NCBI GenBank assembly: GCA_048213135.1
Contig: PS015707.1
Location: 19,105 to 52,652, forward strand
DNA from: Reclinomonas americana ATCC 50394
Lineage: Eukaryota
DNA: 33,548 nt
Reading direction: 5' to 3'
Shown here: one piece after another, positions 1 through 33,415 of the stretch
How positions within the stretch are numbered: the first letter of the stretch is position 1
Layout: every line of letters starts with the position of its first letter
Made by a program: the position numbers and the translations under genes
Notes under the pieces: generated by a model
Seen by the model: only the letters and a program-made list of their open reading frames with translations
Told to the model about the DNA's origin: nothing
Databases searched by the model: none

Positions 1-462
1 ATCACGTGGTGGTGCGCTGTCGATGAACCTGACGGACACGGATCCGGTGGGCTTCACGGCTGTCAACTCTGTGTTTGGCAACAACCGCGCTGTTTTTCAG
101 TCTGCCTATGGCGGTCTGGTGGCGAGCGGTGCCGGCGGTGCTGTGTTCTTCCTCGGAGAAGGTTTCGTTCTCCTCCTTTGTGATTCACTCCCAGTCGTCT
201 CACTCGCGTCGACATGTACAGGACCGCGGTTGGACTTGCTTCAGCAAAACATCGATAGCCGCCTCCTCAACACGTGCACTTTCCAACCGAATTTTGCGGT
301 GTGGGGCCAGCAGATGGCCTCAGGTTGCGGAACTTTGGTCGCTTTGCTGCATTCTCTGGCTGTGAACCTCACTTCTCGCTCACACGCAGGTGCGTACGGA
401 GTGGTATCCACCTCGAGCACCCGTGACGGGCAAGGCAATATTCAGCTGCCATCCGGAAGGTT
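1..462 (+). CDS. Partial multi-exon gene, Pmp-like/pectin-lyase beta-helix repeat protein fragment (open at window edge and at gap)
   Basis: Frame reads SVFGNNRAVFQSAYGGLVASGAGGAVFFLG (FxxN...GGAV); plausible introns from ~162 (GTTTCG) and 324-389 (GTTGCG..CAG); runs into N gap at 463. Confidence 0.55.
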
Positions 463-482
463 NNNNNNNNNNNNNNNNNNNN

Positions 483-9224
<8,742 letters not shown>

Positions 9225-9293
9225 GTGAGTGACGAGTCGCGCGCGTGTGAGTGTGTGACAGTGATGATTGTTCGCACAGAGTGCTCGCGACGA

Positions 9294-9780: not shown

Positions 9781-9823
9781 CGTTCGTTCGTACGTAACGA
9801 CGACACGACGACGACGACGACTA

Positions 9824-9825
<2 letters not shown>

Positions 9826-9951: not shown

Positions 9952-11867
9952 GATAACACGCAGTTGGAGAAGGCCAGCATCATGCCACACCGATACGCCA
10001 TGTATCACGTGGACCCGTCGCACTCGGAAGCGCGTCTGCGCATTGTGGTCAAGTCGACGCGCGCTGACGATCGAGTGACGACCTTTGGCAAGTTCGGGTC
10101 GAGAGTGTATGCCTACAATCGCACGTACCAGGCGGTGTCGGAAGTTGCGCTCTCGCGCTCGGAGACAGCGATTGACATGCACAGCCTTAACTGCCTCTTC
10201 GTCTCGCGCAGATCTCGCCATGGGCGTTCCTTGTGCTTCCCGAGGACATGACGTGCGGTCCACCTACGTATGCAGGTGATTGGCGTGTGGTTGATCCTTG
10301 ACTGCAAGTGGTGGTGGTGCTGATCCGCATAATGTGGCAGCTGGTACGTGTCAGCGCCTGTATGTGAGCGTGATGGGCGACAACAAGTTTCCGGCCACCA
10401 GTGGAACGTCGGCGTACTCGGTGGTCATCATGTCTGGTGTGTGTGTGTGTGTGCGCGCGCTTGCGCGCCGAGGGTCATCTTGTGTGCTCACCTGTGTGCG
10501 CAGACTTTGATTTCAAGGATTTCTCGTGCCCCGACGACAACACTGGCGCGCACGACTGCACCAAGAGCGCGCTGGTGAAGGTCGGCGGTGCCACCACCGT
10601 GTTCGACCCGATTGTGAATCAGGCGGTTCTCCGACTTGTGGACGGGTCGTTGATGCCGACGTCGGCCAGGAAGAACCAGCTCGGTACGTTCTCCGTCAAC
10701 TTGACGACGTGCATATCACAGCCTGATGTGTCTCTCTACCAGGTGGCTGGTTCTACAAGAACCCGAAGCGTCTGATTGACTCCTTCGACACCATGTTCAA
10801 GTTCCGCATTCACACGCAGAGCGAGTGCAACGATCCGCAGGAGTTTCCTCACTGCCACGGCGGCGATGGCTTTGCCTTTGTCTTGTATGGCGGTGTGGTG
10901 CGTCACCGTTGTGGTCCTCATGCCGCACTTCGCCTTCATGATTTGAATGGGTGTTTTTGCTCCAGTCTGCCAGCGAGTTGCCGAGCGTGATCAAGAACTC
11001 TGGTTCCGCGCTCGGCTTCGCCTGCACGGATCCGCTCACCGGCTGCAAGACGGGCCTGCAGAAGAGTTTGGCCGTCGAGTTCGACACGTGGATCAACCAG
11101 GACAAGACGGATCCTGTGGCGGTGCGTGTGTGGGTGTGGGATTGCTCAAGTCGTTGTCTATTGTCAAGCTCACGCCTCTGTCGCTCCTGCAGGGTGTCCA
11201 CTATTACAAAAACGCCTCGGGCAAAACCGTCGACTCGTTCCGAGGGAACCACGTGGCGATCTTCTCGTCGGGTGAGAACCCCAACGGCAATCACCATTAC
11301 TTGTCGGTGAGTGTCCGCGTTGCACGCGCTGAGCATTCTCTCGCACTCTTATTCACCCTGCTTCGTGGCGCGTGCACAGCCTCCTCATCTGGGCACCACG
11401 TTATTCATTCCCGACTTGAGGTGTGTGAAGCAATCCAAATGTCATGGGCTCGAACTGCAAAACCTGACTCAACCATTCGCAGCGACGGACAGGTGCACAC
11501 GGTGGTGATTCAGTATTCCAAGTCCACTGCCCGTGTGGACGTGTATGTTGACGATCTCGATGTGCCAGCACTGGCGGCCGAGGTCATTTTCAGTTGCGTG
11601 TTCTTCTGCATCTTTGTTGTGTGTTCGCATGGATTGTCACCAACACTCGTGCGCACTCAAACAGAGGTGGACGAGGAGCAGCTGCGCACTGGTCGTGCGT
11701 TCATCGGCTTTGTTGGCTCCACCGGCAACACGTACCAGACCGTCGACATTCTCTCGTGGAGGTTCTGCCAGGCTGTCGGATGCGACAGTTGCGTCGTCGT
11801 CGTCGTCGTCGTGCCACTATGCAGCACGCACTCCCGCTTACAGGCCGTCTGTCTTGCAGTTTTCTAA
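9952..11867 (+). CDS. Legume-like (L-type) lectin domain protein, multi-exon; 5' end probably in the gap
   Basis: Joined exons give SFDTMFKFRI, GGDGFAFVL, SLAVEFDTWIN, NHVAI, DGQVHTVVIQY, AFIGFVGSTG and DILSWRF, which are hallmark L-type lectin motifs; unrecognised N-terminal region before about 10504. Confidence 0.85.
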
Positions 11868-11914: not shown

Positions 11915-14900
11915 TCACCGCTGTAAGACCTTGTACACATCGCGATGATGGCACACATCCTCCTTCTGCGAGCAATAAAATACGGCCAATCCGTCATCCG
12001 GTCGTCTTGCACTGGACGCCGTCGAGCAGCCACAGTCCTCCCACGAACGCGACTCCACTGTTCCCCGCAGGCGAAACAACGATGAGTACGAGCTCACACG
12101 CACACACATTCGAGAAAACATAATCAACGCAACCCCGTTTGCCTCGTCGCAGCAGCATGTCGTATCTGGCGGCGAGACTGATCACGTCTTCTGACAGCAC
12201 CTTGTACGAGCCCTCCTGGAGCACCTTCTTCAGCGCCACGTCCGACACGATCTTGCGCAGCTTCTCTCGCAGGTTGGGGATTTTCATGCCCTCGGGGATC
12301 TGCTTGATCAACTCGACCGCATCCTGCACACACATACATCATCATTATCACCACCGCACGAGTTACCACTATTTTCTCGTTCAAATCACGCAACAAACTC
12401 GGTGCCGATGTGATCCAACAAGCTGGCAATGTGCTCCGGGTCCTTGACACTCAGCTGGATCAGGTCCTGCTTCAGACCGACGTCGTTGTGGTCCACCACA
12501 AACTCCACCGCCATCCGCACGTTGCGGAGCTTCTCCATAATCAAGTGCAACGCCTGCTTCAGGTTGCCCATGCGGCCAAGCACATACACCACCTCCTCGT
12601 TCCTTCCGTAGTGTCTGCGGCGCGAAAGAACGTGAGCAGTGGGGAGGAATAAACCAACCAGGATCAACAACGGTATCAACGGAACTCGCAGATGGCCAAC
12701 GCTCGGTCCAGCATGTAGTGGTCGCTGCGCTCCAAAAACTTGAGTAGCAATTTCTGTTCGCGGTCTTGCGGAGTATCGTACTTGCAGTACAGCTCAATCT
12801 GCATGGGGGTGAACAGACACTCTCTTTTGAGAAACAATAGCATCCCATTTAGAGGACTGGGAGGAACGCACCTGTCTCTCGTGGAACTGAGCGCCAGCTG
12901 CCCTATCCTTTTCAAACAGCGCATGCAAAAAGTAGTGCAGGTTCTCTTCCCGACCAATGGCCTCCAGTTGTGCCACCACCCGCTCCGGCTGCGACAAAGC
13001 ATGTCAGCGAAAATGCAAATGGACACACACGCGCAAACACACCACGGCGCGCGACTCAACCTTGATGCGATCGGCATTGGCAACAAACAACTCCACGGCC
13101 CGCTGCACATTAAATTCGAGCAACTCCTGCAGGCTGTCTTGCACTTCGTGGAACAAGTTGTTTTCGCGAATGTAGTCAAAGGCCGACTCCTTGCGGAGCT
13201 GTAGATACAGCTGTAGTGTCCGCGTCTGGTTACCTTGGCGTCGGTACCTGTGGCGTGCCACCGCACGTCAGTTTCTCTGCTCCACATAACAAAGCACACA
13301 CGGGCATCGGTGACGCAACAACTCCGCCAAGCCCTCCATCAATAGTTCACGCCCTCGACCTTCCGCAGTACGAATGGCGTCCTCGGCGGCCACAATCACC
13401 GTGTGCACGTTGTACAAATCGATTGGCCACGAAAACACGCGTTCCACAAAACGCTCCGGATCCAGAGCAATGAAACGCGACAACACCATCTCGTACACCT
13501 CGGCCGGCAACGCATCCTCTGGATTCACGTCGAACGGGATGTGCACGGCGATGGCCTGGCATACCGACGACGATGACAAGGTGTGAGACAAGTGCTATTC
13601 GTTTCCCCTCGACCCCTCTCGTAACGCACCGGTAGTTTGTTCTTCTGGTCAAACGTGTAAATCCACTTCTCCCACAGCGCCTTGTTGTTGCCAAAAAATC
13701 TCTTGCACTGCTCAGCCGCAAAGTCGTAGTCATCTGGGCACGCAAGTCAATTTTTCTTTTTCCACACATTTCGCATAGATGAGGACGCAACTGCTCTCCA
13801 TCAGAGACGTCAGGTAGCTCTCCGCCACCGTCACCAGCGTGTTGGGTGGCAGAATGGCAGCATTTTGCTGCGCACACTCCAGGGCCTTGGTGAACCTGCA
13901 CAAAACAACATGAGGCCACTGCCGACGGAGAAGGAAAAAAGGGTATGGAGGACTCAACTCGCTGCGGGTCACCAGCCACGTGATGTGGTCGTACATGGTC
14001 CGATTGCGCACGGCCACAATGTCGTGAGGTGAGACCACATAGTAGGTGGCCACCCCATTGACCACCACCCACTCCAACGAGTAATCGCGCCAGTCACATT
14101 CGTGGTGCCTGTGCAAGTGTGCGCGCGAGATGAGAATCAGTGCGCGGGGACAACGACGACGACGACGACAACCACTACTCACCCTCGCAGCGGCAACTCG
14201 TCCGTCAGGTGCTCCTCATTTCTCCTCGAAACGATGCGCACTTCGGGCTTGGCGCCGGTTTGTGCTACGGGATCGTCAGCCTGAAAGCAAATTGCGTGTC
14301 AATGATCTGCATCGACTGAGATTGTTCATGACAAACACCACCACACGCAACGGGCGCATCGTCTGATCTCGGGTACGCCACCAGCACCAGCCGGTCGGCG
14401 TCGAGTGGTCGGATGCCGCATACCGTGTAGTCCGTCATAAACCTGCAAGACACCAATGAGTGAGAATGCTGTAGGGACAGATAGCACAACAGAGGAGCAA
14501 CGCAACATGGAGGTGATTTCCATACACCGAGCGGGAAGACCCGAGTCTCGCTGCTCCTGCGTCGTATCCTACAGGGAAAGCACGAAAGCCGATGAGCAAG
14601 CTCGGAAGACCGATGGAGAAACACTGACTGGCCGTACCTTGACTTGTGCAATGGTGACCGTGTTGGCCCAGGCAATCAGCAACCGCACGCCCGTCTCCCA
14701 CACCAGACTGCACTGGTACAAGTCAGGTCGCAAGTTGCTGGCTGGCCTGTGAATGTTGGTGATCTTTTGGCCGAGCGACAAGTCGTGGACCTGCGGGTTT
14801 CCACCAGGTTTTCAGCAACGCACCCACCGACAATCTCTCTCACTCTCTCACTCACACGACCCACACACCTTGACACCCCGATCATTGGCCCAGGCGATCA

Positions 14901-15345
14901 GTGGTCCGCACCACGCCACGCGAGTGATGGTGCCCTCGTTCTGATACAACACCGTGTCTTTCGTCGAGAACCAACCTGCACAAACACACACGTTCAGCAC
15001 GGGGAAATGAGAGATGTGGCAAACAAGCCGCACTCACCCTTGGTCGAGAACACCAGCTTCTGCCCCGCTCCGCCCGACACAAACGGCTTGGAGTTGCGCA
15101 GCTTGTACGCCGGATCGAGCGCCACACACCGCAAGCCCTTCTCCTGCTGCGGAAACTCGGCGCTCTCCCGAGCAAACGTCGTCGTGATCACAACTCGCCC
15201 ATCATTGGCGCACGTCGCAATCCAGTCACCGCTGTCATCCGTCGACATGTCGTTCACCGGAATGCCCGAGTGTGGCTTGAATCGTCGCACTTCCTTCCCC
15301 TGATGGTCGTACACAATCACCTGTCCGCTGTGCAATCCAATGGCC
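11915..15345 (-). CDS. VPS41: Vacuolar protein sorting 41 (HOPS subunit), multi-exon; first exon(s) unresolved near the gap
   Basis: WD40 start AIGLHSGQVIVYDHQG..VNDMSTDDSGDWIATCANDGRV, WCGPLIAWANDRGVK, YYVVSPHDIV, DHITWL, clathrin-repeat-like EEVVYVLGRMGNLKQAL, and IPEGMKIPNLREKLRKIVSD. Confidence 0.93.
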
Positions 15346-15365
15346 TGCAGTCATCAATGAGTGCG

Positions 15366-15498
15366 AGAGTGTGTGTGTGAGAGAGAGAGAGAGAGAGTGG
15401 GAGAGAGAGAGGAGGGAGGGAGTGAGTGAGTGTGTGTGGTTTGACAAAGGATGACGCGCTCAGATGCTCTTCTCTTTTCTCTCCCTTTTCTCTCCTCT

Positions 15499-15568
<70 letters not shown>
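15366..15568. repeat. Compound (GA)n/(TC)n/(AC)n low-complexity tract
   Basis: Visible dinucleotide runs flanking gap 15569-15588. Confidence 0.9.
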
Positions 15569-15704
15569 NNNNNNNNNNNNNNNNNNNNAAAGACGGAGTC
15601 AATCGATCTGCACTCTGTTAGTCAGTAAGTGACTTTTGTGTTTGTGTGATGTCTCTGAGTGCATCATGCGTGGCCATTCTGGAGGCACTTGCACGCGGAC
15701 ACAG

Positions 15705-18397
15705 TGAGCAACGCAATGATGTCTTTCTCGTCCTCAATGCCGTGTTTGCATGCGTCGGAGCAGTGCTTGTCGTTGTTTCGTCTGTGTCTCTCTCTCTCTC
15801 TCAGTGTCTGTCTGTCTCTCTCACACATGCACACAGCTGTTCTGGTTCGCGCGCAAGCTTCCTTATCTCAAAGCCCGCTCACCTCTGCTCTCAATGCTCA
15901 ATGGATTGCAGCTGATCATTGGAAATATGTTCTCGTTCAGTCAATACCCCTCTGCGCGCATGTTGTTGCACGCCCGCGCTCATGTCGCGTGTTTTTCATA
16001 GTGCTTTGGTGAACCTTTCATCGGTGCCGTGTATGGTTCTGTGGGCGGCGCCGTTCCTGGTCACGCCGATCTTTATCATTGGACAGGTGTTTCGCTGTGT
16101 GCGACTGATGCTCATCTTTCGGCGATCGGAGGCGCAGGCGAAGCGTGCGACACGCTCTTCTTCTTCGCGTAGGCGACGGCCTACGTTGGCGTCGAGGAAA
16201 GGGAACAAGTCACCGCGGGAGTCGAGCGACAGAAGGCGACGAACGCTGGTGGCGTTTGAGGTCGATACGCATAAGGACGAGCATGAGGAGGAGGAGGAGA
16301 TCTCGCAGGGGGTGTTGTCGTCGCCTTCCGGGGCGCGTAGTGAGGAGGAGATGCAGCCGTTGGCGGCCGATGTCGATGCGCAGTCGATGCTGTCGGTGGA
16401 GACGGCGGTGGAGACGGCCGATACGCTCGGTCGCTTTGCGTCGTCGTTTACGGGCGGGGACTCGCTCGACACGGAGAGTGTGGCGGGCGACACGACGCTG
16501 GTCGAGGCCAGCTCCCGCGATCGGCGGTTCAGCGAGGAGTACATGCTGCGGTGGTACTTTGCAGTCGTGGTGCTCATGCTCGTCATCTGGGTGGCCGTGG
16601 GACTGTCGGTGAGTGCACAGCAAGGAGCAAGTTGAGCTGGCGCTGGGCAATGACGGTGTGTCTCGTTGCAGGTGGCGAGCTCGTACCGCACGTCGCAGGC
16701 GCCGACCGAAGAATCGTGTCTGTGCGCCAATCTGGTGCGCTACTTTACTGTCGGCAGCTTCATGGTGGCGCTGGTGTTTGACGTGCTCCAGCTGTACATG
16801 GTTCGCCTTTGCTGTTGTCTGTCTCTCTCTCCAGAAGTGTGTATTCACCTCGTTTGATGCAGATCTACCTGTTGCGCGGCGTGCGCGACCAGTTCTCCAT
16901 CAACACAGAACTCAAAATCACCGTTGCGTGAGGGAATCTCTCTTGCCTCCTCTCCAAGTCCTCACCCGGCGTCCCCTCAGTGCCTGCTGGCATTCGTCAG
17001 CCTGATGCCACCCGTCGTGGTGTCGTTCACGACGGAATTCGGCGGCTCCGCGTACCAAGTGATTCAGCTGATTTTCAGTTTCATCCTTATCGAATCCATG
17101 CTGGTGGCCGTCATCCTGGTCCCGCTGGTACAGGCGTGGCGTGATTGGCGCGCCTCTGCGCATCTATCCTCTCGCTTCTTGGCAATTCGGCCAATGGAGC
17201 AGCATCTGTTGCCGGCCGACAACTTTGAGCATGTCATGTCGCAGACGCACGCGCGGCAGCTGTTCAAGCGGTACTTGGTGTCGGAATTCAGGTGCGATCG
17301 CATTGTGGGGGGAAGGCATGCTTCCATTTGCACTCACAATTGAATGTGCGTGTGTGCGTAGCGTGGAGAACATGGTGCGCTGCGTTGCTTGCCCCTTTTC
17401 GCTTTCCTCCCACCCACCCACTCACTCTTTGCGTGGTTATCAGCTGTTCTGGGAGGACGTGGAGAAACTGAAGGAGTACTTCCTTCGACATGTACTGTCG
17501 CATGCAGCTGATACGTCGCTCGTCGGCACCGATAGCAGCTCCGGACGCGTGTATCACGTCAACATGACCGACACCAGCGGCAGGTTTGCATGAGAAATGA
17601 GTGCGACCTTGTATTTCCTTCCTCACTCGCCCTGCTACAGTTCGAATCCAAACACGCCAAGAGGATCCGTGCGGCATCCGGTCGTGCTCTGCCGCATGGT
17701 GCGCGCATGTTTTCACATCCGCTCTTGCTCGCTGCGCACACTCTCCCTCACTCACTCCCTCCCCTTCTCCACCTCAGTGCGACAAATTATATCAGCGGTA
17801 CATTGCCTCTGGCGCCGAGAACGAACTCAATCTTCCCGGCTCAATCACGGGCGAGATCCGCGAGGCCTTCCTCAAACACCACCCCAATCCCTACGCCTTC
17901 ATGCTGGTCGACCGCTCCAATCGCCCACAATCGGTCGACAAGAGAATCACGCTGTACCCGACCGGCATCCCAGTGCCGGGCACCATCCTGCCACCCTCAA
18001 TGTCCTTCCTCGGCAGCGGCTCCAGTACCGGAAGCTCCATCACACAAGCGGCACTGGCGGCTGTCGTCTCCGCGGGCACCAATAGCGACGTGCCGGTGCC
18101 GACCAATTCCGTGGTCACCATCTTTGACTCGGCCCTCAACAGCGTTCTTTACACATTATGGTATTGTCGACGTGCTTGCTGCACGTCCTCTTCTCACTGT
18201 TCCTCACATGCTGCGTGCGTCATACAGTACCGACAGCTTCCGTCGCTTCGTGGCCTCACCCGACTTCCTGGCACACCTGCGCAGCGAAAGAGAAATCCTG
18301 GTCTGCCAACGTCGCCACCTCCGTTCTCGTGCGAATTTCTTCTCACCCTTCTTCTCTCGTGCTGCAGAGCCGCATCGTAGGCGCCCGCATGTTATAG
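15705..18397 (+). CDS. 7TM-RGS fusion protein (multipass membrane domain plus C-terminal RGS domain); start uncertain
   Basis: Hydrophobic segments with YLKARSP, VPCMVLW and VRDQFSINTELK; RGS motifs FKRYLVSEFSVENMLFWEDV, YIASGAENELNLP and IFDSA...TDSFRRF; stop TAG at 18395-18397 after SRIVGARML. Confidence 0.87.
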
Positions 18398-18489: not shown

Positions 18490-20243
18490 ATGCGTCGTGG
18501 GAGCGCAGGAGCCTCTTCCTCTGGGAAGCGAGACAAGCGATCAAGTAAACAGTCAGCAGCACCTCCACCAACAGCAGCTGCAGCAAGTGAAGAAGAGCAG
18601 GCAGGCATTGACACGCGATCATCGAAGGTTCTTCCTCTCTCCCTGAATGTGTGTGAGAGTGCACAGCTCACGCACACTCTTGTGTGAGTGCAGTCGCCCA
18701 CAGCACTCGTTGAGCCGCTGCTTAACAACGTACTAGGCGAGACACGCGCTGACTATTGGGCACGCATCGCGCCCTCACCAGAGTACACGTGCGTGCATGC
18801 ATGCATGCATCTCTCTCGCTCTCTTTCTGTCTGTGAGACTGAGGTAAGGCGACTGCAGGTGGCACCTGCGACTCCGACCACGCCTGCCCATTGGACGACT
18901 ACTGTTGTACTTGCACGAGAAGGCGGCGCCGTTTGCGGGAAGCTGTGCGAGTTGGGAAGGCGTGCGAGCAGTGATTGCGCAATGGGCGGTGTTGCTTGTC
19001 GTGCAGGCTGTGCTGGTGTATCGCTCGACGTTTCTGGGATGGGGCTTGATGGCGCTGGGTGTCTTCTTTCAGGTACACGATTGAGGAGGGGGGGCGAAGG
19101 AGAAGGCTGCGCAGTGCGTGAAAGTGATTGTGAAATCGATGATGTGCAGTGGCAGGAGCTGAATGTGTCGCGACCTGAGTTCCCCGACGAGCGGTTCCTG
19201 GTGCGCGACATGATGCGCGAGGAGTATGATGTGGACGAGGTGGCAGAGTCGCCGCTGCTGCCGTTTTGTGCGTGTGCACACGCCTTCTTTTCTTCGATGT
19301 GCGTTGCATGTGGCTGATATGAGTGAGGGGTATGCAGTGGAATCGCGCATTCGACGAACGTCGGTGGCGCTGACGCCGCTGCACATGTGCAACGTCGTGC
19401 TGAAGGTGGCCCCGGTGGCCTTGGTGTGTCTGGCAATCGGTTGGCCGGCTGGCAAGGGCATGGTGAGTGACGCGCGAATCCGTTGTCATGGTGTGCATGA
19501 GTGCCGATCCTCCTTCCTCTCCTTCAGGTTAGAGGAGTTGTTAACGCCATTGGAATTACCCTGCTGCTCGGCGACGCGTGCTGGCCTTACCTGCACCAAG
19601 ACACGTACGGACTGCCGTCGAGACGGTGCGAGTCGCCGTTGCAGGCGCTGCTCACCATAGGCGTGTTTGCACGCGATGCTCCGGCCTTGTGCGCCCTCGG
19701 CGCCTTTATCGTCCTCGTGTCGTGGCGGTGCTTTTTGCAGTTGCGCACGCACACACCATCGCATGTCACCTCGGTGGTCAGCGAATGCGTGCCCATTCCC
19801 TGGTTTTTTGCAGGTACACGGTGAGCACGCGAGTCTACGACAAGTGCATGCCGGTGCAGCTGCGTGCCACCGCTCCGATGGTTCTCCTGAGCCAAATCCA
19901 CCCCGGCTTCCAACATGGCTTCTTCACCGCACCCTCGCCACCGCCCACCGGCGAACGGCAACGCCTCACCTGCGTCTCCACCTCGCACGTCCTCGACTAC
20001 ATCTTCGTGGCCGTCGTGTGGACCGCCTTTGCCGCCCTCGCCTACCGCGCCTCACCGTTCGCCTACAAGGCCGTCATCGGCGTCGCCCTCGGCCTCTTCC
20101 TCACACGACCTTCGTACGATCCCGACCTGCACTCACTCGCCACGCTCAAGGCCTCCATTAAGAAGTGGTACTGGTGGCTCGGCTATGCACTGCTGGCGGC
20201 CGCCGAGTGGGACCTCTTGTCGGCACTCACTCGCGAACCTTGA
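18490..20243 (+). CDS. Hypothetical multipass membrane protein, multi-exon
   Basis: Joinable GT-AG exons from MRRGSAGASSSGK through TFLGWGLMALGVFFQ, VAPVALVCLAIGW, YIFVAVVWTAFAALAY, VIGVALGLFL and WYWWLGYALL to stop at 20243; no family recognised. Confidence 0.6.
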
Positions 20244-21278: not shown

Positions 21279-22216
21279 TCATCTGCCCTTCTCATCACCC
21301 TCCAGCGCCTTGCGCAACCACGTGCGACTGTGGCCGGCAAAGTAGTCGTCGATGCGCCCAATGTCGTCGTAGCCGAGACGCCGGTAGAACTCAGGCGCCT
21401 GAAAGTCAAACGTGTCGACTACAGCGCGTCGACATCCGCGCTGCCTCGCCAGCGACTCGAGTCGCCGCAGCACCTCCGAGCCCATTCCGCGTCCGCGCAT
21501 CGACTCGTCCACCCACACCATCTTCACCTGCAAGTCGCCGCCCAGTGTCACGCCCGTGGCCGCAGCCACGAGCCTCCCACGTTCGCGTACTAGCACGCCT
21601 GCGTCCACGTAGCGCCACGCAAAGCCCACAGCCTCGGTGGCGTGCGCCGAGAGTCCCTCGTTGATCACACGCGCGTCCTCGGCCGACACGCGATTCACCG
21701 ACTCGACTACAGTGTCGGGCGACAAGTGCTGTCGCTCCAGCATGTGCTGCACTGCGGCTGCGTTCGTGGGCAAGCGATCGGGGGCGCTTGGACAAGTCGC
21801 CTCCAATCGCTGCAGTTCCTCTTCCCATTGCGCGTGGCGCTGGAGGAAGCGACGACGGGCGAAGCAGTAGGGGACGAGAGAGAGGCCGAGTGTGCAAAAG
21901 GCGAAGAGCAGACCGCAGGCCAGTGGGCCTTGCAGCTCCTCGTGGGCGCGAGGTTCGTGCGAGAGGTGCGTGCGTCGGCGTCGCTGTGTGGTGTCGGGCG
22001 ATTCCTGTGCATGTGTGGGTGGTGATGAGAGGGCGTGCCAGGGAGAGCACACACACACACACACACTCGTGTGCCACGCACAGGGGATGGGGGCAGCTGG
22101 ATCGCTCTTTGTTGATGATCATCATCGTCTTCGTCTTCGTTTTCGCCAGTGTGATGCAGCAGTGAGCGACGCAGCTGCTCGGTGACCTTGTCGACGCTGT
22201 CGCTGGCGTGCGTCAT
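21279..22216 (-). CDS. GNAT-family N-acetyltransferase with N-terminal extension and one hydrophobic segment; exons 22216-22082 and 22004-21279
   Basis: Motif A VWVDESMRGRGMGSEVL and motif B VDTFDFQAPEFYRRLGY; phase-0 intron 22005-22081 (GTGCGT..CAG). Confidence 0.88.
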
Positions 22217-22346: not shown

Positions 22347-24976
22347 TCAGCGCAGTGGAGGAACACCGCTGGCAAACGGTGCCGTTGACTGTGATGGTGG
22401 TGGCACTGGCGATGCTGCTGATGGTGCGGCAGCACGAAGCGTCTCCACGGCTGGCGTGCTGTCGCCGCGCGAGTGGTACGGTACGACAGCCGGTGGTGCG
22501 GCCGCCGGCGACATGGACAACATGGGCGGCACACCAATCGGGCTGGCAGTGGACAACGGCGAGTGCACCGGGGGTGGCACCGGCGACGCGTAGGTCGCCG
22601 TGTAGGGCCCAGCGGTGGCGACCGGAGCAACGTGATACGAGGCGGCTGGTGCTACTTGTGTCCGCACGGGGTCGGAGATCGACGACACTTGCGGAGGCAG
22701 TGGCGCCTGATACGGCGTCACTGTGGGGACTGCCGGTGGCGGCGGCGGCGGTGCGTAGTACGACGGCGGACCCGCTGGAGTCGGTGTCGCGTACACCGCA
22801 GCAGGTGGCGCTCCGTAAGGGAGTGACACAGGCGGCGGCACGGCCGCAAACGCAGCCGGGGCCGGTGCATCGCTGTGCGGCGGCGGTGGCACACTGGAGA
22901 GAGTTGACGGAGCCGAGTTGACTGCCGACGCCGGTGGCTGGCCGGGCGCATACGACACCACAGGCTGCGCGCTACCGTACAGATCTCCAGCCGGCAGTGA
23001 TGATGGTGGAGGCACATAAGAGTGATCGGCAAATGCGGGCGGTTCATGATGGTCGTCGTGAGCGGCCGGGGGTGCGTGCTCCGGCACCAATGACAGCGGC
23101 TGCGCCGGCACCGGTGAGAGCGGCTGATCGATGGCGTAATGTTGCTGCGCAGGCGGAGACAAAGGATCTGCGCGACGAGCGACATGAGAGTGAGCACAAC
23201 GCATGCACGGGAAGAAAGCGAAAGTCACCAACTGACCATGGAACTCGGGTACGCTGTCTGGGTTGCGCAACACGTCCGCCAGGCGCTTCGCCCAGCCTGG
23301 TCCCATCGGCTTTGTCTTGTCGGGGCCGCGCTTGGCTTCATCCTGTGGCACCGCAACAGGTGACATTTCGGTACTGCGCGAGCGAGACACACACAGGGAC
23401 GCACCAGCCACTGCAGCTTTTGTCGCATGCGCCACGCGCGCACGCGGATCGGCGTGTATGGGAAGCGTCCCTCAACCACAGTGCTGTGCTCCAGTGCGAC
23501 TTGCAGACCGAGAACAAAGTCGGTGGGGTTCACCGGTGACACAAAGTCGTAGGTGCGTTGCCGGGCGACCTGATGCAACACGCTAATGAGAAGCCGGTTC
23601 CGCTGCACGCCATGCGCAAATCACATACCACCGAGAAGCAGTTCCACGGAGTGCGGCGGAACGTGGCCCACGGACCGCTCTTCTTGAAGTTCTTGGTGTA
23701 CGGTCCGAGAACCACGTAGCGAATCTGATTCAGCGGGATCACACGGTTCGGTGCCTTGTTGTGCGGGCCTGCAAATTCAACAAGTGAGTGACAAGCCACC
23801 GACAATGCAAGCCTGCTCCAGGGCACCCACCAAAGCGCAGCGACTGCCCGTCGTTAGACAGCTTTACGTAGCGACGCTGGACCTTGTTCTTGCGGAAGGC
23901 GACCTTGTCCACGACCACACCCTGCTTCGCCACCTGGATGTACCGCTCGCTGCGGTCGTGCAGCAACTGGAGATCATGTGTGGAGGAGACTGCGCGGGAG
24001 ACTCAAGTCAATAAAAATGACCCGTACTTTTGATCGTACCACGTCCCAAAACAACGCAACATGATGACGGCGGGGCCAATCGCGGCGGTGGGACCGGTTC
24101 CGGCTCTGGCTCCGGCTCCGGCTCCAATACCGGCTCCGGTTCTGGTTCAGGCTCCGGCTGCTGCGGCGGCACCTCTGTAATCAAAAAAAGAGAGTCAGAG
24201 TCAGATGGAGTCGCCATGAGAGGGGGGAAGCAGACAACCGCGTACGGAACCTGGTACTGGCGGCGGAATCGGTCTTGGGTACGCGTACCGCATGTCGTAG
24301 ATGGCCGGTTGTGGAGGATGCGTGCCGTGTGGCGGGCTGGCGAGTGCACGTGCGGGTGGCGATGCCGACTGGGGGATCGAATGATGCGAGACAGGCGGCA
24401 CCTCACCACTGTGGCCACTCTCGGAATCGCGGTTGTGGCCATTGATGTCGGGCTGCACGAGCAGAGGAGTGAGTGAGGAACGATTACAACAACAATGAAA
24501 GCAATGCAAGCAAACATACCTCCACCGCTCGTGCCATCTCATCGTCATAGTCGAGCAAGTGCTGCGACGGGTGGTGGCCGTGTGGGTCGGCAGTGGCATG
24601 CAGCGGCGACGACAAATGATACACCATGCCGTCGCTGGCTACCTGCGGAGCCACGTCACCATTGTTATGGTGGTAGCCCTGGTCGTACTCATTGCCGTAC
24701 ATGTCGTCATCGTGCGGCGTGCGGTACTCGTCGCCAGCACCACCATACGGCTGCTGACCGTGATGCTGATACTCGTCGTCATTGTAGCCGCCTGTCTGGA
24801 AACCAGAAGCGGCCTCTGCGGCAGCGGCAGCAGCAGCTGCTGCGGCATAGTCGTCCTGCACCGGATACGGTGGTGAATTCGGCTGCGCCGGTCGCTGCAG
24901 GCGAGGGCCGGCCGACGGAACGCGAGTCGGCGACCGTGAACCCTGCCGCCGACTGCGTGCCAGCATACTGAGATTG
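22347..24976 (-). CDS. PH-domain (PLC-type PH-like) protein with Pro-rich regions; 3' part of a gene cut by a gap
   Basis: KQGVVVDKVAFRKNKVQRRYVKLSNDGQSLRF..IPLNQIRYVVLG..NCFSVVARQRTYDF..FVLGLQ resembles PLC-like PH domains; (PE)n tract at ~24090-24157; long Pro/Ala/Tyr-rich tail. Confidence 0.7.
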
Positions 24977-25950: not shown

Positions 25951-26779
25951 AGCTCAGAAATGCTCGGGCCCGAGCCACGCGAGGAGGCCACGGCGGCAGC
26001 CGCAGCGGCAGCAACACGCTGGGGAGAGCGCGCGCTGCGCTGCGGGCTTCCACGACCACTGGTGTTGCCACCGGCACCGCCGGCGCGCATGCCAGGCGGT
26101 GACGGCGAGCGACGGCCCGACTGACCACCCAACGGTTCCTCGCGAGTCAGCGTCACCGCCAGACGCGCAAAGCGGTGCAGACGCGAGCCGTCGTGCGTTC
26201 CATAAAAGTACAAACACAAGTAGCGTCCGACGAGCGTGTCGCGGAACGAGAACGTCTGCGCCGTCTCGTCGTGCTCGGCCGGGCACTCGATGCGCCAATC
26301 CGACTCGATCGTACGGAAGCCAAAGGCTGCGTTCTCCGAGGTCGAAATGAGGCACTTGGTGGGGCATCCACGCGGTCCCGACGGCGTCACATGCACGGTG
26401 ATGACGCCCGGATGCTGCTTCGAGCCGCCAGCTCCACGCTTCAGCTCGAGGACGCACGACGAGCAGTCGTTGCGTGAAATGTTGGTGGTCCAGAAGGGAT
26501 TCTCATTGCGCAAGTTGCGCGGCTGTGCCGACTCGCCCGACGACACGCGCAGCACCGTCTGGCACCCGCTTCCCGACGCCGAAATCACCGTCTTCACCAT
26601 GTTGGAGGTCACCAGGTGCGACGCGCCGCTCTTGGAGGTGGCCGGCGCGAGACCGGTCGGCGACGGACTGCGCGGACGGCCTGCAGCAGCAGCACGCGCA
26701 CCAGTGGGTGGCGATGCCGGAGCCGCCGCTGCCTGTCGCTGTGCCGGTTGCGGTTGCGACGAGTAGCCCTGCGATCGAG
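25951..26779 (-). CDS. Coding segment between gaps with a putative galactose-binding-like (jelly-roll; APC10/IFT25/discoidin-like) domain
   Basis: Open frame throughout; globular part RVSSGES..RNL..FWTT..CVLEL..PTKCLIS..QTFSF..GRYLCLYFYG flanked by RSPSP low-complexity sequence. The fold call is an inference. Confidence 0.55.
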
Positions 26780-27641
26780 NNNNNNNNNNNNNNNNNNNNN
26801 NNNNNNNNNNNNNNNNNNNNNNNNNNNNNNNNNNNNNNNNNNNNNNNNNNNNNNNNNNNNNNNNNNNNNNNNNNNNNNNNNNNNNNNNNNNNNNNNNNNN
26901 NNNNNNNNNNNNNNNNNNNNNNNNNNNNNNNNNNNNNNNNNNNNNNNNNNNNNNNNNNNNNNNNNNNNNNNNNNNNNNNNNNNNNNNNNNNNNNNNNNNN
27001 NNNNNNNNNNNNNNNNNNNNNNNNNNNNNNNNNNNNNNNNNNNNNNNNNNNNNNNNNNNNNNNNNNNNNNNNNNNNNNNNNNNNNNNNNNNNNNNNNNNN
27101 NNNNNNNNNNNNNNNNNNNNNNNNNNNNNNNNNNNNNNNNNNNNNNNNNNNNNNNNNNNNNNNNNNNNNNNNNNNNNNNNNNNNNNNNNNNNNNNNNNNN
27201 NNNNNNNNNNNNNNNNNNNNNNNNNNNNNNNNNNNNNNNNNNNNNNNNNNNNNNNNNNNNNNNNNNNNNNNNNNNNNNNNNNNNNNNNNNNNNNNNNNNN
27301 NNNNNNNNNNNNNNNNNNNNNNNNNNNNNNNNNNNNNNNNNNNNNNNNNNNNNNNNNNNNNNNNNNNNNNNNNNNNNNNNNNNNNNNNNNNNNNNNNNNN
27401 NNNNNNNNNNNNNNNNNNNNNNNNNNNNNNNNNNNNNNNNNNNNNNNNNNNNNNNNNNNNNNNNNNNNNNNNNNNNNNNNNNNNNNNNNNNNNNNNNNNN
27501 NNNNNNNNNNNNNNNNNNNNNNNNNNNNNNNNNNNNNNNNNNNNNNNNNNNNNNNNNNNNNNNNNNNNNNNNNNNNNNNNNNNNNNNNNNNNNNNNNNNN
27601 NNNNNNNNNNNNNNNNNNNNNNNNNNNNNNNNNNNNNNNNN

Positions 27642-28783
27642 TGAGCACGAGTGAACACGCGAAGAGGACAACGGGGACCGCCGTCGACGCAACAGTCACA
27701 TTGCCGGACTGCGGCGTCGGTGATCGCGCGCGCTGAGCAGAGAAACAAGCAAGCATGAAAGAATGAGTCGACGCAAACGACACAATGCCACCAGACACAG
27801 ACACACTCAACAGGGAACTGCACCGGTTGGTACTGCTGCAGCGGCGATCCACCCTGCGTCGGCGACGCACCACGCGGAGGTGCCGAGGCCGCAGGAGGAG
27901 GAGGCGACGAGAATGCCGACTGCTGCTGCTGCGGTGGGGAAGCAGGCGCACCAGCGCCCTGCGATGAGGCACCAGGGTACACTTGATGCAGAGCCGCAGT
28001 GGGCGAGGCCATCTGCAAACAAGTGAGTGAGTGAGGAGAGAGACTGGGAGAGAGAGAGAGAGACTCACTGAGGAGGTGATTGTGCCGGAGTTGACTCGCG
28101 GCACTGCAGACGACTGCGCGCCTCTGTTGGCCTCCTCGGAACGCCTCCGCTGCTCGGCCAATGTCAACAGCTCGTGCTCGCCACGCGCATTCAACGAGCC
28201 CTTCAGCAATGCATCACGCTCGGAAAATGCAAGCTGCAAAACACATGAGTTGCGTGTGCAAGAGAGTGTGAAGAGTGGTGTGGACGAGTGTGCGTACCTT
28301 TTCAAACGCGGAGAACTTTTCGTTGAGACCGAATCGCAGAGGGCCTGTGTGTGGTGTGTGAGTGGAGAGTGTGTGGTGGAAAATGGCCCGCTTGTGTTAT
28401 GCACAACCGAAAACAAAATCGCGATGGCCACTGTATATGCGTGTGTGTCTCGGCCACTCACTCACTCTCTGTGTGTGTGTGCTGCGACCAGTGCAACGAG
28501 TGTGCGTGTGTTTGTTGTTGTTTGTTGTGCGTGACATGGCGATGTCTCTTGTTCTTTCTTCCGCACCTGTGCCAAACGCGTTGACTCCGCCGCCATTCGC
28601 CGCCGCATTGGAGGAGTTGGGGGAGGTGGCGGAGGGAGGCGATGGAGAGCGTCCACTGCGTGCGCCGGAAGAAACGGGACCGCTGTTTGTGGCAGCAGCC
28701 GCTCTCGAGGAGCGGATCGGGTGCGTCGTCTGCACAGGCATGCCGCCGTTGGCGGAGGCCGACGAGGCCGGTGCGCGGTACAT
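27642..28783 (-). CDS. 5' exons of a low-complexity Ser/Pro/Ala-rich protein, probably the same gene as the two segments above
   Basis: ATG at 28783 (MYRAPASSASANGG), GT-AG joinable exons, and RSPSP motifs shared with the 25951-26779 segment. Confidence 0.55.
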
Positions 28784-29426
28784 GCTTTTTTTCCTCGCAA
28801 CAAATCGAAAAACAAATGTGCGACGTCGACGTGTCCGGCGGGACGTTGATTGATTTCGGGCTTTGTGCGAGCAAAAGCGACCAACGACAAAAATCGAAAT
28901 GGGTTGTGGTGCCAGTGTTGCGGGTGTGAATGCTGGGAGACGAGCGTCGCGGTTGAACTTGTGGACGAATGGCAATCCGGATGGACTGACTGACTCGGAG
29001 AGTGACGCGACTGGTTCGTTCGATTTCTTCGGTTTTTTTCACGCGGTTGTGTTGTTTTTTGGAAGGGAGGCAGTTCCTCTTTCTTCTCTTTCCCCACGTG
29101 CGCACACCTCCTTTCTCTCTTGTCGACTGTGTCTGTTTGAGTGAGACAAACGCACGTCTGTGATCGAAAGAGCGACCAACGAAACGTGCACTTCGTGTAG
29201 ACTGACTGACTGTTCTTCTTCCGCTTCACGAAATGCGCAGGGTGTGGTAAACTACGCGAGGCACTCCATTCAGATCTGCAGACACCGCGCATCCACGTTC
29301 AGCGTGTGGTGAGTTGATGTTCGCCAGTTTGTTCGGAGTGGAGAGATATCGGAAAAAGCTCAGGATTGACTATGTGCTTGACTGTGCGCTTCTCGGCAGC
29401 AGAGTCTGGAGATACCGGCGACCCGC

Positions 29427-29906
29427 ATGCCTTCTGCACTTCGTAGACCGGGCGATTCGCCATGTGCACGCGCCAAGTCTGCTCGGTTTGCCACCTCGCC
29501 AACATCACGAAAGTCGTCGGCAGCAGCGGGAGGAGGCGCATGGAACTTTGCTGGAGTGGTGCCGCGATCGCCACGCCGACGCATGAGTGTGGATCTGTCG
29601 ACACTGGCCAATGCGCGAACACCAGTGGAGCGACTGCAGTACTACGCCACAGCGCGGCGGTCGTCGCTGTCGGCCGTCACGAAGGGTCCGACTCCAACCA
29701 ACGACAAAAATGACAACAACAACGCGGCGATGCTGAAACCGGGCGCGTTGGTGCAAGAGCGCACGACACGCGGCATGTGGGAGGGTGCACTGGCCGACAG
29801 TCGCCGCCTGAGCCTCTCGTCGAGTCTGTCGTCGGTCTCGTCGGACAAGCTGACCATGACGACGCTCACGCCCACGGCCGGCAACAACAATGGCGCCGCG
29901 CCATGA
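29427..29906 (+). CDS. Hypothetical low-complexity protein
   Basis: 159-aa ORF with ATG and RRxS motifs, filling the space between two minus-strand genes; no recognisable domain. Confidence 0.35.
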   Translation: MPSALRRPGDSPCARAKSARFATSPTSRKSSAAAGGGAWNFAGVVPRSPRRRMSVDLSTLANARTPVERLQYYATARRSSLSAVTKGPTPTNDKNDNNNAAMLKPGALVQERTTRGMWEGALADSRRLSLSSSLSSVSSDKLTMTTLTPTAGNNNGAAP

Positions 29907-30065
29907 GAGCGGCCGCCGCTTGGCCATTCGTAGATAGCATGTACCGCGTGTTGCAGGCGAAGCGTACGCGAGGAGAAACAGAGACAAGCAAGTGTAAAAT
30001 GATGTGCACCTAGATGTTATATTGTTGTTGCTGTCGTTGTCGTCGTCATTGTTGTTGCTGTTGGT

Positions 30066-33000
30066 CTAGTGCTCGTGGCCGTGCCCACTATCGGGTGGCA
30101 GTGCACCTGCTTGTGCCGCGCGCAGCAAGCGGTGCACCTCGGCCAAGTGCGCCTGCAGCATAACAGCCACATCGCTCTTGATCTGCAACACGCGCAATCA
30201 GCATCCAGCAGAGAAAACAGACCTACTCTGCGTGCGTACCTGGGCGGCCACCGCGTCACTGACGGCTCGCAAACTAATGGCGCGCTGTGCACGCGCACGC
30301 CGCAACAACTCGTCCTCGTCCACAAACGCACCACCCTGCACGGCAAAGTCGTCGGCCGGCGATGCGAAACTGCGCTGTGGTGAAAGGACGGCCGGTGTCT
30401 CGGGGACCAACAACGGCATCTCCTCGGCTGATCGCCGGCGCGAGTGGCCCGCTTGAGAGGCGGCAGCTGGCGGTGCTGCGGTCGCACCCATTTGTGGATC
30501 GTAGTGGTGGTAGTGATGTACATCGTGCGACGGAGCAGCGGCGTGATGCACATCGAGATGCACATCGGCAGCTGCGGGAATTGGAGACATGAATGGAAGA
30601 GAGATGGGCATAGACGTGGGTAGGAACAGGACATATACACACCAGCAGCACTGGCCGTGTTGACAGTGCGCTCCTCTTCGGAAATGTCGGCCAGACGGCG
30701 GCGAATGTGGCGGATTTTGAGGATTTGCCGTGTGGTCTTGTCCTCGATTCGTTTCTGCGCTCACGCACGAGTTAGCAAAGCATTGCGACTGTGTGCATAC
30801 ACATCGGGGCAATGGATACCACGCACCGCGCCCTTCAAGTAGTACGGATCCTCGTCTTCCAAGTTTTCGGTCTCGCAACCAAACTTGTACGACTCCCAAC
30901 TGATTTGAATGAGGCGCGCGCACTCCTCGCGGTGTTGAGCCATGAGACGCCGTCGCTGCATCCAGAGAATGGAGTGCATCTCAAAGTCGTTCGGGCGCAT
31001 CTTGACGTGAATGTAGTCGATGAGGAAGGCGAAGAGGAAGAGACCCCACACGACCGACATCTGCGAGGTGGAGAAAAGAGAGAAATGAGTGCCGCGCGGA
31101 GGTGCGGTGCAAAGAGGGGAGGAGAGACCATGCATACGGCCTTGCCCATGGAGGTCTGCGGGATATAGACCGAGTACGCGTCGACAGGATAGCCGGTGGC
31201 CAGGCAGGTGAAAATCAACTGCGCGGAGCAATCACAGTGAGCGTGCTTGCTCAAGAAGAGGTGGAATATAGCACGCAACAAACAGCGATCCGGTAAAGTC
31301 AAACAGCATCGGCTGTGCCTCGCGCTCAAACACATACACGCAGTATGTGCCGAGCCTGTGACGCGCTCCAATGAGTGACTGCACGCACGTCTGCACAGTG
31401 CAGAAGAAGAGACGCAACAGGATGCCGATTGTCATCCACGACAGACAAAAGAGCACGGGATAGTCGTGGAAGAAGACACGGAGGGTGAGCGACACATTGA
31501 ATGTGGGTGCCAGCTGGTGCTTGAAGCCGGGGATGCGTCGCACGAGTCGGCGTTGCTGGTAGATCAGACTCGTGTCGCTGCAGGGAGGAGAGTGGGGGAA
31601 GGAGTGGGTGCGAGGTGGGAACAGGGGGAAGGAACAGGGGGAAAGAGCAGGGGGAAGGAACAGAGGAAATGGAGAGAGGGAAGGAACAGGGGGAAGGTGA
31701 AGGGGGAAGGAGAAGGGGGAAGGAACAGGGGGAAGGAACAGGGGGGGAAGGAACAGGGGGAAGGAACAGGGGGAAGAGCACGGGGGAAGGAACAGGGGGA
31801 ACGAAAAGGGGGAAGGAGAAGGGGAAAGGAGAAAGGGGGACGAACAGGGGGAAGGAACCGGGGGAAGGGGAAGGAGGGGAAAGAGGGAAGGAGAAGGGGG
31901 AAGGAACGGGCGGCCAGAGGCGAAAGTGTGACAGAGAAAATCCACGCGGCATGCATCACCCGCGACGTGTCACTCACCGCACGAGGAACAAAACAGTGAG
32001 CAAGCGTGGAATCATGGCCACCGTCAGCAGCTTGTCCGTGGCCACACCTGCAGCAGTGCCGTCTGTAAGTGAGCATCGCCTTACGGATGGCACACTGACC
32101 GGTGGAGGGAGTGTGCCTCACCAACATAGTCGACGGGATGTGGCAGAAAAATGAGAATCCAAATCCAAAACTGCGTGCGGAGAATACACGTCAGCTGCAC
32201 TCGCCGCGTGGTGCAGCAGTGCCTTCACCGACACCAAACCGTGTAGCGAGTGGTCGAGCGTGCCCACATGGCCCAGAAGCCCGGGTTGAGCTGGCGCAGA
32301 CGGGCCTTGCGATGCACGTTCTGAATCGTGTGCGGACCGACATGAATCATGGACTCGCGCCTGCAACAACGCGCTCACAGTCGGATGCCGAACAGCAAAC
32401 ACAGACGAAAATGAGCTGCTACAGAACGCAACAGCTCATTGATCTTGCGCTGCACATCGCTCTCGATCTTGGCGGCACGCGAGTCCTCGATCTTGTTCAC
32501 GATGCGCGTTCGGAAAAGATCCACCACTTGGATCACTGCACGCGGCACTCAGCTGCTGTACAGTGGGTACCAAGGGAGAACCACAAAGCAAAAACGCAAC
32601 GTGTAATCACAGTCAGCACCGAGTTGATAATCTTCAGCGTGCGACCCGCACTCGTCGGCAGCAACGAACTGCCGTTCCACTCCAGCTCCAGCTGCAGCAG
32701 CATGCAAGCAACAGTGAGTGTTCGATATGCGTCGAAATATGGCCGTCACAACTACACTACCAAGGCACTGCTGTGCTATTCCTCCTCCTCCTCCTCCTCC
32801 ACTTACACAACATGTAGTGTGCAAAGGCGGGAAGGAGAAACAAGCGACGAGAGTTGTTCGAACACGCGCCAACAAAAAAGATACCCGATTCTCTCTCCTT
32901 TATCTCTCTCCACTCTTTTGGAGTCACAGTGCTGGTACGCAACGACCACCACAGCAATGGCCAGAGAGAGCACAGAGGTGATTGTCAGCAGCACATCGCG

Positions 33001-33415
33001 CAGCATCACTCGGCGATCGCGTTGTTCGCCATTGACCTCCAGCGATCGAATGTTGAACCTGCAACAGCAGCATCTCTCGTGAGAGACAGACAGAGAGTGA
33101 GAGAGTGTGACAAAGAGTGAAGACGTGACTGTCGCGTGGAGCGCTCCACAGGTGCCAACATTGCTTTCAGAGGAACATCGCGTCCGGGCGAGGGTATCAA
33201 TGGAGGATGCACGTCTTCCAGTGCCTCCTCCGCCCAGTGTCGCTGTGCGCCAGAGGGTGGAGGAGAGGAGGCCACTGAGGGACCGGGTGACACACTGCTG
33301 CCTCCTCCTCCTCCTCCTCCATCATAACGCGACTGTGTGTCTTGTGTTGTCAGTTGCTGTGTGAAGAATAGGATGGGAGGCAAGAAGGCACAAAAAAAGG
33401 CGCAACGTCCATCAT
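30066..33415 (-). CDS. SK/KCNN-like (small-conductance Ca2+-activated K+ channel family) 6TM channel with atypical pore, multi-exon
   Basis: Joined exons parallel SK: TLKIINSVLTVI (S2), FLPHP (S3), AMIPRL (S4), FNVSLTLRVFFHDYP, YVFERE (S5), TCLATGYP..PQTSMGKAVC (pore), and KMRPNDFE..ARLIQISWESYK (CaM-binding region); ATG 33415, TAG 30066. Confidence 0.85.
31613..31910 (+). repeat. Degenerate purine-rich minisatellite, unit ~CAGGGGGAAGGAA (13 bp), inside a channel-gene intron
   Basis: About 20 imperfect copies visible; almost entirely G/A on the + strand. Confidence 0.92.

Follow-up and report, generated by a model that had tools for sequence, protein, structure and literature searches.

In this study, we used coding frames, gene models and protein homology to examine the 5' splice sites in a 33,548-nucleotide (nt) stretch of eukaryotic nuclear DNA from Reclinomonas americana ATCC 50394 (contig PS015707.1, positions 19,105 to 52,652; hereafter the window, numbered from its first letter), for which an earlier reading of the letters alone, the original prediction, had listed introns that recurrently begin with GTTGCG. 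We confirm this observation, which turns out to be stronger than first stated: beside its common donors, of the form GT[GA]NG[TC], the window carries a second and very common donor class of the form GTT[GC][CA]G (the GTT class), which makes up 60% of the introns of a VPS41 gene (9 of 15) and ∼29% of the predicted short introns overall (22 of 76), which puts its share of the short introns at roughly a third to a half. From homology and coding frames, we show where the junctions of these introns lie, how frequent they are and which sequence rules they follow. They are probably genuine U2-type GT-AG introns handled by one spliceosome, with its small nuclear RNAs (snRNAs) in a shifted or bulged register; judged from sequence, the GTT class adds a new and highly frequent variant to a mode of 5' splice-site reading that is known but rare.

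Homology-based junctions in VPS41

Exon-sized open reading frames (ORFs) on the minus strand at ∼12.1 to 15.4 kb match the Pfam Vps41 beta-propeller and TPR models and delimit a partial VPS41 gene, whose 5' exons lie beyond an N gap (15569-15588) and whose 3' end is approximate. A phmmer search with one of its exons against 1.84 billion representatives returned 403 relatives (best E=1e-12), and 32 distant homologues of 800 to 1100 residues, drawn from 150 listed matches, were aligned to build a hidden Markov model (HMM). The 14-intron version of the gene encodes a stop-free protein of 746 aa that scores 796.8 bits against this HMM, and the 15-intron version one of 795 aa that scores 811.0 bits. 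With at least 15 introns, all of 58 to 78 nt, in ∼2.4 kb of coding sequence, VPS41 is unusually dense in introns, which are moreover short and of very uniform length.

At the first 14 of these introns, all GT/GC..AG pairs that keep the frame and lie within ±40 nt were scored as competitors; the junction of our model came out on top in 12, and in the other 2, which sit in a poorly conserved stretch, it fell within 0.8 bits of the best. Retaining an intron truncates the protein in 14 of the 15 cases, and the remaining intron, at 13958, costs 14.6 bits when retained. The 15 donors are GTGAGT (2), GTGCGT (2), GTGTGT (1), GTACGG (1), GTTGCG (6), GTTGAG (2) and GTTCCG (1), so that nine of the introns have a T at +3 and no G at +5. 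Five of them (12133, 12394, 13319, 13791 and 14506) stood on the original list of GTTGCG sites, and each is supported as an intron by VPS41 homology and is the top frame-compatible GT/GC..AG junction.

The reading frame would also be kept if these introns started 3 nt later, as GC-AG introns of the form GTT|GCGT with the GTT left in the exon. Such a start scores 0.8 bits higher at 14351, an intron in a poorly conserved stretch whose exact junction is tied within 0.8 bits with alternatives, and it is only 0.3 bits worse at 12133 and ∼1.1 to 1.2 bits worse at 12394. We nevertheless consider it very unlikely that the junctions are misplaced. The later start lowers the VPS41 score in 8 of the 9 GTT-class introns (5 of the 6 with GTTGCG), by up to 6.2 bits, which resembles the 4.3 to 6.1 bits that it costs in 5 of the 6 control introns of the gene; the GTTGAG and GTTCCG introns, three of them in VPS41, would have to begin with GA or CC; and GTT recurs whatever the codon phase (8, 5 and 9 GTT-class introns of the pooled set described below in phases 0, 1 and 2), which an exonic codon leaves unexplained.

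GTTGCG as a donor in donor-blind tests

Both strands of the window together hold 51 copies of GTTGCG, against 36.2 ± 6.1 in dinucleotide-preserving shuffles, and 51 was reached in 2 of 100 shuffles. The raw count is thus just mildly unusual, and the signal resides in the positions of the copies. This is seen in a frame-joining test of the 4135 GT hexamer sites with clean flanks, which a site passes if a YAG 50 to 95 nt downstream joins the best coding frames of both sides across a non-coding interior. GTTGCG passes at 12 of 47 sites, compared to 152 of 4135 for the pooled sites (P=9.5e-8), and is the most enriched GT hexamer, followed by GTGCGT (8 of 50) and GTGAGT (5 of 40). On the reversed, non-complemented sequence, 12 of 4959 sites pass and no hexamer is enriched. 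The expectation that GTTGCG acts as a donor more often than chance allows is borne out by these numbers. Two looser approaches were of no help: a test for a downstream branch motif was uninformative, with a background rate of 31%, and enumeration by ORF openness alone was too permissive in the GC-rich DNA of the window.

The gene models were obtained by dynamic programming over codon log-odds, GT and AG, with a bonus for YAG plus a branch motif and an intron limit of 140 nt (an earlier limit of 400 nt skipped weak exons). This donor-agnostic model, which over-predicts and many of whose one-off donors are probably false, gives 87 introns, among them 10 with GTTGCG, 9 with GTGCGT and 5 each with GTGAGT and GTGTGT. 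When a donor term trained on the model's own output is included, 92 introns result, with GTTGCG at 18, GTGCGT at 12 and GTGAGT at 7.

Anatomy of the two donor classes

To compare the classes, we assembled a pooled set from the first 14 curated introns of VPS41 and all further predictions of 50 to 95 nt with a YAG end; the intron at 12133 was excluded, and the GT start and YAG end of the pooled introns are true by construction. The 76 short introns comprise 33 of the common class, 22 of the GTT class—18 with GTTGCG and 2 each with GTTGAG and GTTCCG—and 21 with other, mostly unique donors. Those of the GTT class are spread over at least five genes and both strands, and the other donors named in the original prediction (GTGCGT, GTGCGC and GTGAGT) are found as claimed.

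The two classes are related by a displacement of one base in that (i) a conserved G stands at +6 in the GTT class (22 of 22) and at +5 in the common class (33 of 33); (ii) a conserved T follows it, at +7 in 17 of 22 and at +6 in 30 of 33, respectively; (iii) a G at exon position -1 is found in 3 of 22 GTT-class introns compared to 22 of 33 common ones (Fisher P=1.1e-4); (iv) position +5 of the GTT class is C in 20 of 22 introns and A in the other 2, and never G; and (v) the extra base is only ever a T, with a GT[A/C/G]GCG donor at 1 of 97 sites in the donor-agnostic model, against 10 of 51 for GTTGCG. Positions +3 to +6 are partly true by construction, as the class is defined as GTT[GC][CA]G; the +7 T, the loss of the -1 G and the T-only rule are independent of this definition. 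Counted from the last base of the exon, the common donor reads G-G-T-G-C-G-T, and counted from the first base of the intron, the GTT-class donor reads G-T-T-G-C-G-T; the two seven-base strings differ at one position, which shifts the GT one base to the left. The proposal that GTTGCG is GTGCG plus one T therefore stands, supported by the occurrence of GTTGAGT beside GTGAGT, by the +6 G and +7 T that mirror the +5 G and +6 T, and by the identity of the extra base. That these donors lack the +5 G, by contrast, is correct in conventional numbering only, every GTT-class intron having its G at +6.

In other respects, the two classes are alike. Their mean lengths are 67.9 nt (GTT class) and 67.8 nt (common class) and their GC contents 0.53 and 0.54; the 3' end is CAG in 20 of 22 GTT-class introns, with TAG in the other 2, and in 32 of 33 common ones; and the branch motif CT[CGA]A[CT], at a distance of 8 to 45 nt from the 3' end, is present in 13 of the 22 GTT-class introns and 24 of the 33 common ones, with median distances of 18 and 20 nt, respectively. 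Of the two differences that had been envisaged for GTTGCG introns, the one in exon-end sequence is thus found at the -1 G, whereas the one in the branch point is not, the motif rates being similar.

The stereotyped lengths of 58 to 78 nt and the very high intron density would be in line with introners, that is, with GTTGCG introns having spread as a mobile family equipped with a donor of its own, as had also been suggested. Common-class introns, however, are of equal length, and the local alignment scores of intron interiors in the 33.5-kb window are 7.37 within the GTT class, 7.38 between classes and 7.41 within the common class, just a little more than the 6.85 of shuffled sequences. Because the interiors are as alike between classes as within them, the GTT-class introns do not appear to be mobile-intron copies, and we give such an origin hardly any weight.

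Equally little speaks for a gene-modelling artefact, for chance or for introns of the minor (U12-type) spliceosome. The modest excess of the raw motif (51 against 36) and the noise of the models outside VPS41 would fit an artefact, but the junctions verified by homology in VPS41 and the donor-agnostic enrichment with its clean reversed-sequence control do not. U12-type introns have the donor consensus RTATCCTT and a TCCTTAAC-like branch site; GTTGCG, GTTGAG and GTTCCG are unlike this donor, and the CTSAC branch motif and 3' signals of the GTT class are those of the other introns.

A probable shifted register or a possible changed U1

As to which RNA pairs with what, we infer the following, which we think is probable, though by no means certain. 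The usual donor, G|GTGCGT or G|GTGAGT, and the second class, |GTTGCGT or |GTTGAGT and rarely GTTCCGT, share a seven-base element G-N-T-G-C/A-G-T, within which the GT of the GTT class stands one base earlier, and cleavage in the GTT class would fall one base farther from the GCGT/GAGT core. The same snRNA elements would bind the core identically in both classes, and the cut would be placed at whichever GU stands 2 or 3 nt upstream of it. In the shifted (+1) register, the G at +1 would lie opposite C9 of U1, the U at +3 opposite A7, the G at +6 opposite C4 and the U at +7 opposite A3; a bulged U at +2/+3 would be an equivalent description. The later pairing of U6 with the G-U of the core would have to tolerate the same extra base. 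This arrangement would account for two of the sequence rules: the preference for G at -1 would be lost because the G at +1 already occupies C9, and the extra base would have to be a T because it is paired with A7.

Several results weigh against this reading. Every junction is inferred from protein homology and coding frames; outside VPS41 the models over-predict, and the 21 one-off donors among the 76 pooled introns are probably in part false; and within VPS41, the start 3 nt downstream scores nearly as well at 12394 and 12133 and better at 14351, as described above. The pairing itself is also a difficulty. In nearest-neighbour duplexes with the 5' end of a textbook U1, the common class reaches a mean of -6.7 kcal/mol, in the canonical register in 30 of 33 introns, but the GTT class reaches a mean of -1.5 kcal/mol without a consistent register, the core G being paired with C4 in 11 of the 20 GTT-class introns itemised. 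Moreover, the preference for C over A opposite psi-5 of U1 is stronger in the GTT class (20:2, at +5) than in the common class (15:10, at +4; P=0.02), whereas pairing to the two U1 pseudouridines would lead one to expect the reverse, and exon positions -1 and -2 bear no sign of an extended pairing that the shifted register could use.

These difficulties would be eased if U1, and perhaps U6, had co-evolved with the donors or if an additional U1 existed. The standard U1 sequence is ACUUACCU, and the standard U6 has ACAGAGA. An altered U1 5' end, either with G-C in place of the two pseudouridines or as a second U1 paralogue fully complementary to GUUGCGU, would pair strongly with the UGCGU core, and the GTT class would then be well paired; this possibility keeps the one-base offset of the shifted register and differs from it in the machinery. 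In our calculations, a hypothetical U1 with UU replaced by GC brings the GTT class, which a textbook U1 pairs so poorly, to -6.6 kcal/mol and places the core G of all 22 introns opposite C4 and the +1 G of 11 of them opposite C9; a G in U1 would also suit the strong preference for C at +5. There is precedent for such changes in Entamoeba and Mastigamoeba, according to the available text of Roy & Bowser (bioRxiv 10.1101/2022.06.08.495308). On the other hand, GTGAGT and GTAAGT donors coexist in the window, the Rfam scan finds no snRNA gene in its 33.5 kb, and the same available text describes a standard U1 in Thecamonas and five Mamiellales despite their GYGCGY donors, so that a C at +4 needs no changed U1. 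We therefore hold a changed U1 to be possible but doubtful, and clearly less likely than a standard U1 in a shifted or bulged register. The original prediction had offered three mechanisms, a bulged or shifted register, a variant U1/U6 and a dedicated protein that recognises a second donor class; of these, a +1 shift agrees with the loss of the -1 G, and the very weak pairing with a textbook U1 leaves room for a variant snRNA.

Comparison with known systems

Shifted (+1) and bulge registers of the pairing between U1 and the 5' splice site were reportedly described by Roca & Krainer in 2009 and by Roca et al. in 2012. The human sites of this kind resemble the GTT class in having an extra base after the GU, G and U at +6 and +7 and no G at +5, and in being cleaved at the GU of ordinary U2-type introns. 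In the available text of Tan et al. 2016 (PMC4856993), experiments in human cells are reported to have validated both the shifted +1 and the bulge +2/+3 registers, and the bulge +2/+3 class is put at 68 of 201,541 5' splice sites, 54 of them left after curation, or ∼1 in 3,000. The window differs from this in frequency, the GTT class accounting for 22 of its 76 predicted short introns and for 9 of the 15 in VPS41, as against 68 of 201,541, and in that its GCGU core is mismatched to the standard U1, the predicted pairing being far weaker.

Donors that depart from GURAGU are also known from Entamoeba, with GUUUGUU donors and the U1 sequence AACAAAC, and from Mastigamoeba balamuthi, with GUGCGC-preferring donors and the U1 sequence ACGUAC (Roy & Bowser, bioRxiv 10.1101/2022.06.08.495308, available text). 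The U at +3 in the former and the C at +4 in the latter recall the window. In that account, however, each has a single transformed consensus in the normal register that keeps the +5 G, and Entamoeba is intron-poor, whereas here two registers would occur at similar frequency in an intron-dense genome. The window, with 57.7% G+C and introns of ∼68 nt, is likewise unlike M. balamuthi, for which the available part of PMC8136499 gives 60.7% GC, a mean intron of 137 bp and 3.4 introns per gene. The common class, G|GTGCGT with a CTSAC branch, recalls the GTGCG(T/C) donors and CTGAC-type branch of Mamiellales and Thecamonas, but the available text of bioRxiv 10.1101/2022.06.08.495308 does not mention a GTT class in them. 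The source is not a close relative of Mamiellales-type algae, since no sampled protein exceeds ∼38% identity to VPS41, a Chloropicon protein reaching 34%. We found no publication on GTTGCG or GUUGCG as a splice motif in open-access PubMed Central and bioRxiv text, in which logos shown only in figures are invisible.

The key question, then, is whether a standard or a changed U1/U6 reads the GTT class. A genome in which a third or more of the introns were of the shifted-register kind would be a natural experiment on how the position of cleavage is determined by U1, U6 and the catalytic centre; it could also show whether snRNAs co-evolve with their sites. We can only tentatively envisage a combined picture in which strong pairing of the UGCGU core with a changed U1, together with U6, mainly defines the 5' splice site, the nearest GU upstream independently determines the cut, and two cleavage registers, 2 or 3 nt from the core, are used genome-wide at comparable frequency. 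If true, this would be the first natural system in which U1 register and cleavage position are routinely uncoupled, as well as a further case of co-evolution between snRNAs and splice sites, this time in an intron-rich genome. On the practical side, gene finders that expect a +5 G would miss or misplace ∼1 in 3 introns here, which may be one reason why matching protein models for these genes are lacking from the collections searched.

Individual sites

All 20 coordinates of the original prediction carry GTTGCG on the strand given, and most of them have a CTSAC-like branch motif and a CAG 55 to 80 nt downstream. As introns, 12 of the 20 are supported, namely the five in VPS41 and those at 16923, 7390, 31279, 31418, 32432, 32600 and 24060, which coding-frame tests or donor-agnostic models back (Table 1). 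Two more are of moderate standing: 7717 is called by the donor-trained model only and has a weak upstream flank, and 8079 is frame-consistent, but the model favours a donor at 8113. Four are left undecided. Site 324 (plus strand) is doubtful because its 66-nt segment (324-389) keeps the frame and contains no stop, and because a GTGCGT starts right behind it, at 390; 11788 and 33406 fall outside every gene model; and 3578 (minus strand) combines an ATAG end and the lack of a branch motif with a GTGCGC that starts 5 nt farther downstream (3573). The last two are not supported, with inconsistent frames at 3160 and no YAG within 50 to 95 nt downstream of 5013.

Conversely, the list was incomplete. 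Further GTTGCG donors were found at 14351 (in VPS41), 8313, 2122 and 19740 and probably at 11593, GTTGAG donors, also missed earlier, at 13958 and 13060, and GTTCCG donors at 12685 and 24250. The site at 11593 (plus strand) lies in an L-type lectin-like gene and, with an intron of 72 nt, passes the frame-joining test; in the gene models it falls within an exon. In the region at 30000-33548 (minus strand), the earlier label "channel" found no backing in Pfam scans of exon ORFs and stays unconfirmed.

Table 1. VPS41 and the GTT-class introns with their evidence (positions in the window; new, GTTGCG site absent from the original prediction)
Feature	Position	Strand	Donor	Length (nt)	Evidence and remarks
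VPS41 gene, partial	11915..15350	-			Pfam Vps41 beta-propeller and TPR matches on exon ORFs; 15 introns, 9 of GTT class
VPS41 intron	14443..14506	-	GTTGCGT	64	Ends CAG; top of 5 HMM alternatives by 4.3 bits; retention truncates protein
VPS41 intron, new	14281..14351	-	GTTGCGT	71	Retention truncates protein
VPS41 intron	13896..13958	-	GTTGAGT	63	Top HMM by 10.6 bits; in frame without stop, retention costs 14.6 bits
VPS41 intron	13734..13791	-	GTTGCGT	58	Top of 20 HMM alternatives by 4.7 bits; passes frame-joining test
VPS41 intron	13248..13319	-	GTTGCGT	72	Top of 19 HMM alternatives by 3.4 bits; passes frame-joining test
VPS41 intron	12989..13060	-	GTTGAGT	72	Top of 32 HMM alternatives by 6.1 bits; removes in-frame stop
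VPS41 intron	12615..12685	-	GTTCCGT	71	Top of 10 HMM alternatives by 9.9 bits
VPS41 intron	12324..12394	-	GTTGCGT	71	Top HMM; homologue alignments end at donor and resume at 12323
VPS41 intron, last	12058..12133	-	GTTGCGT	76	811.0 bits against 798.9 for read-through (+12)
Intron	16923..16980	+	GTTGCGT	58	Donor-agnostic and trained models; flanking frames consistent
Intron, new	19740..19813	+	GTTGCGC	74	Frame-joining test; trained model
Intron	23990..24060	-	GTTGCGT	71	Frame-joining test; trained model
Intron	24175..24250	-	GTTCCGT	76	Both gene models; removes in-frame stop
Intron	31219..31279	-	GTTGCGT	61	Donor-agnostic model; frame-joining test
Intron	31356..31418	-	GTTGCGT	63	Frame-joining test; trained model
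Intron	32361..32432	-	GTTGCGT	72	Frame-joining test; trained model
Intron	32536..32600	-	GTTGCGT	65	Donor-agnostic model; frame-joining test
Intron, large repeat-protein gene	7313..7390	-	GTTGCGC	78	Donor-agnostic model; frame-joining test
Intron, new	8249..8313	-	GTTGCGG	65	Donor-agnostic model; frame-joining test

Setting of the window

The window (G+C content calculated with its five N gaps excluded) has tightly packed genes on both strands, split by many short introns, and a strong third-position GC in its coding regions. Its source looks like a poorly sampled lineage whose genome is apparently unannotated. Among the matches listed, no protein is more than 38% identical to the spliced VPS41; the closest of these, at 30 to 38% identity, come from forams, CRuMs, fungi, animals, plants and jakobids, and the best named ones are scattered over Nonionella, Rigifila, Crassostrea, Chloropicon, Stygiella and others. 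With the VPS41 exon as query, neither a search for longer homologous proteins nor a metagenome scan for relatives returned any. Because the VPS41 matches are distant and a 240-aa exon with a GNAT acetyltransferase domain (21285-22004, minus strand) has no self match among 5.8 billion protein clusters, the lineage appears to be unsampled in the protein collections searched.

The Rfam scan of the window reported no family at gathering thresholds and, at E<=1, only sub-threshold microRNA and small nucleolar RNA models, on both strands of a microsatellite palindrome at 15350-15568, and no snRNA. This imperfect palindrome of ∼200 nt, whose two sides are made up of (GA)n/(GT)n and of (CT)n/(CA)n, adjoins an N gap within a VPS41 intron and is a low-complexity artefact, not an RNA gene. 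A very large repeat-protein gene occupies 795-9096 (minus strand), with weak Chlam_PMP and pectin-lyase-like signals and ∼35 introns in its model, of which several are doubtful, and at ∼4840-4960 the same region holds a long (GT)n run. The closest relatives of the GNAT exon among the 5.8 billion clusters are bacterial where named (Aminobacter, Longimicrobium; 31 to 51% identity). Given these relatives and the predicted gene with GT-AG introns upstream, the GNAT gene may have been horizontally acquired and may now be intron-bearing.

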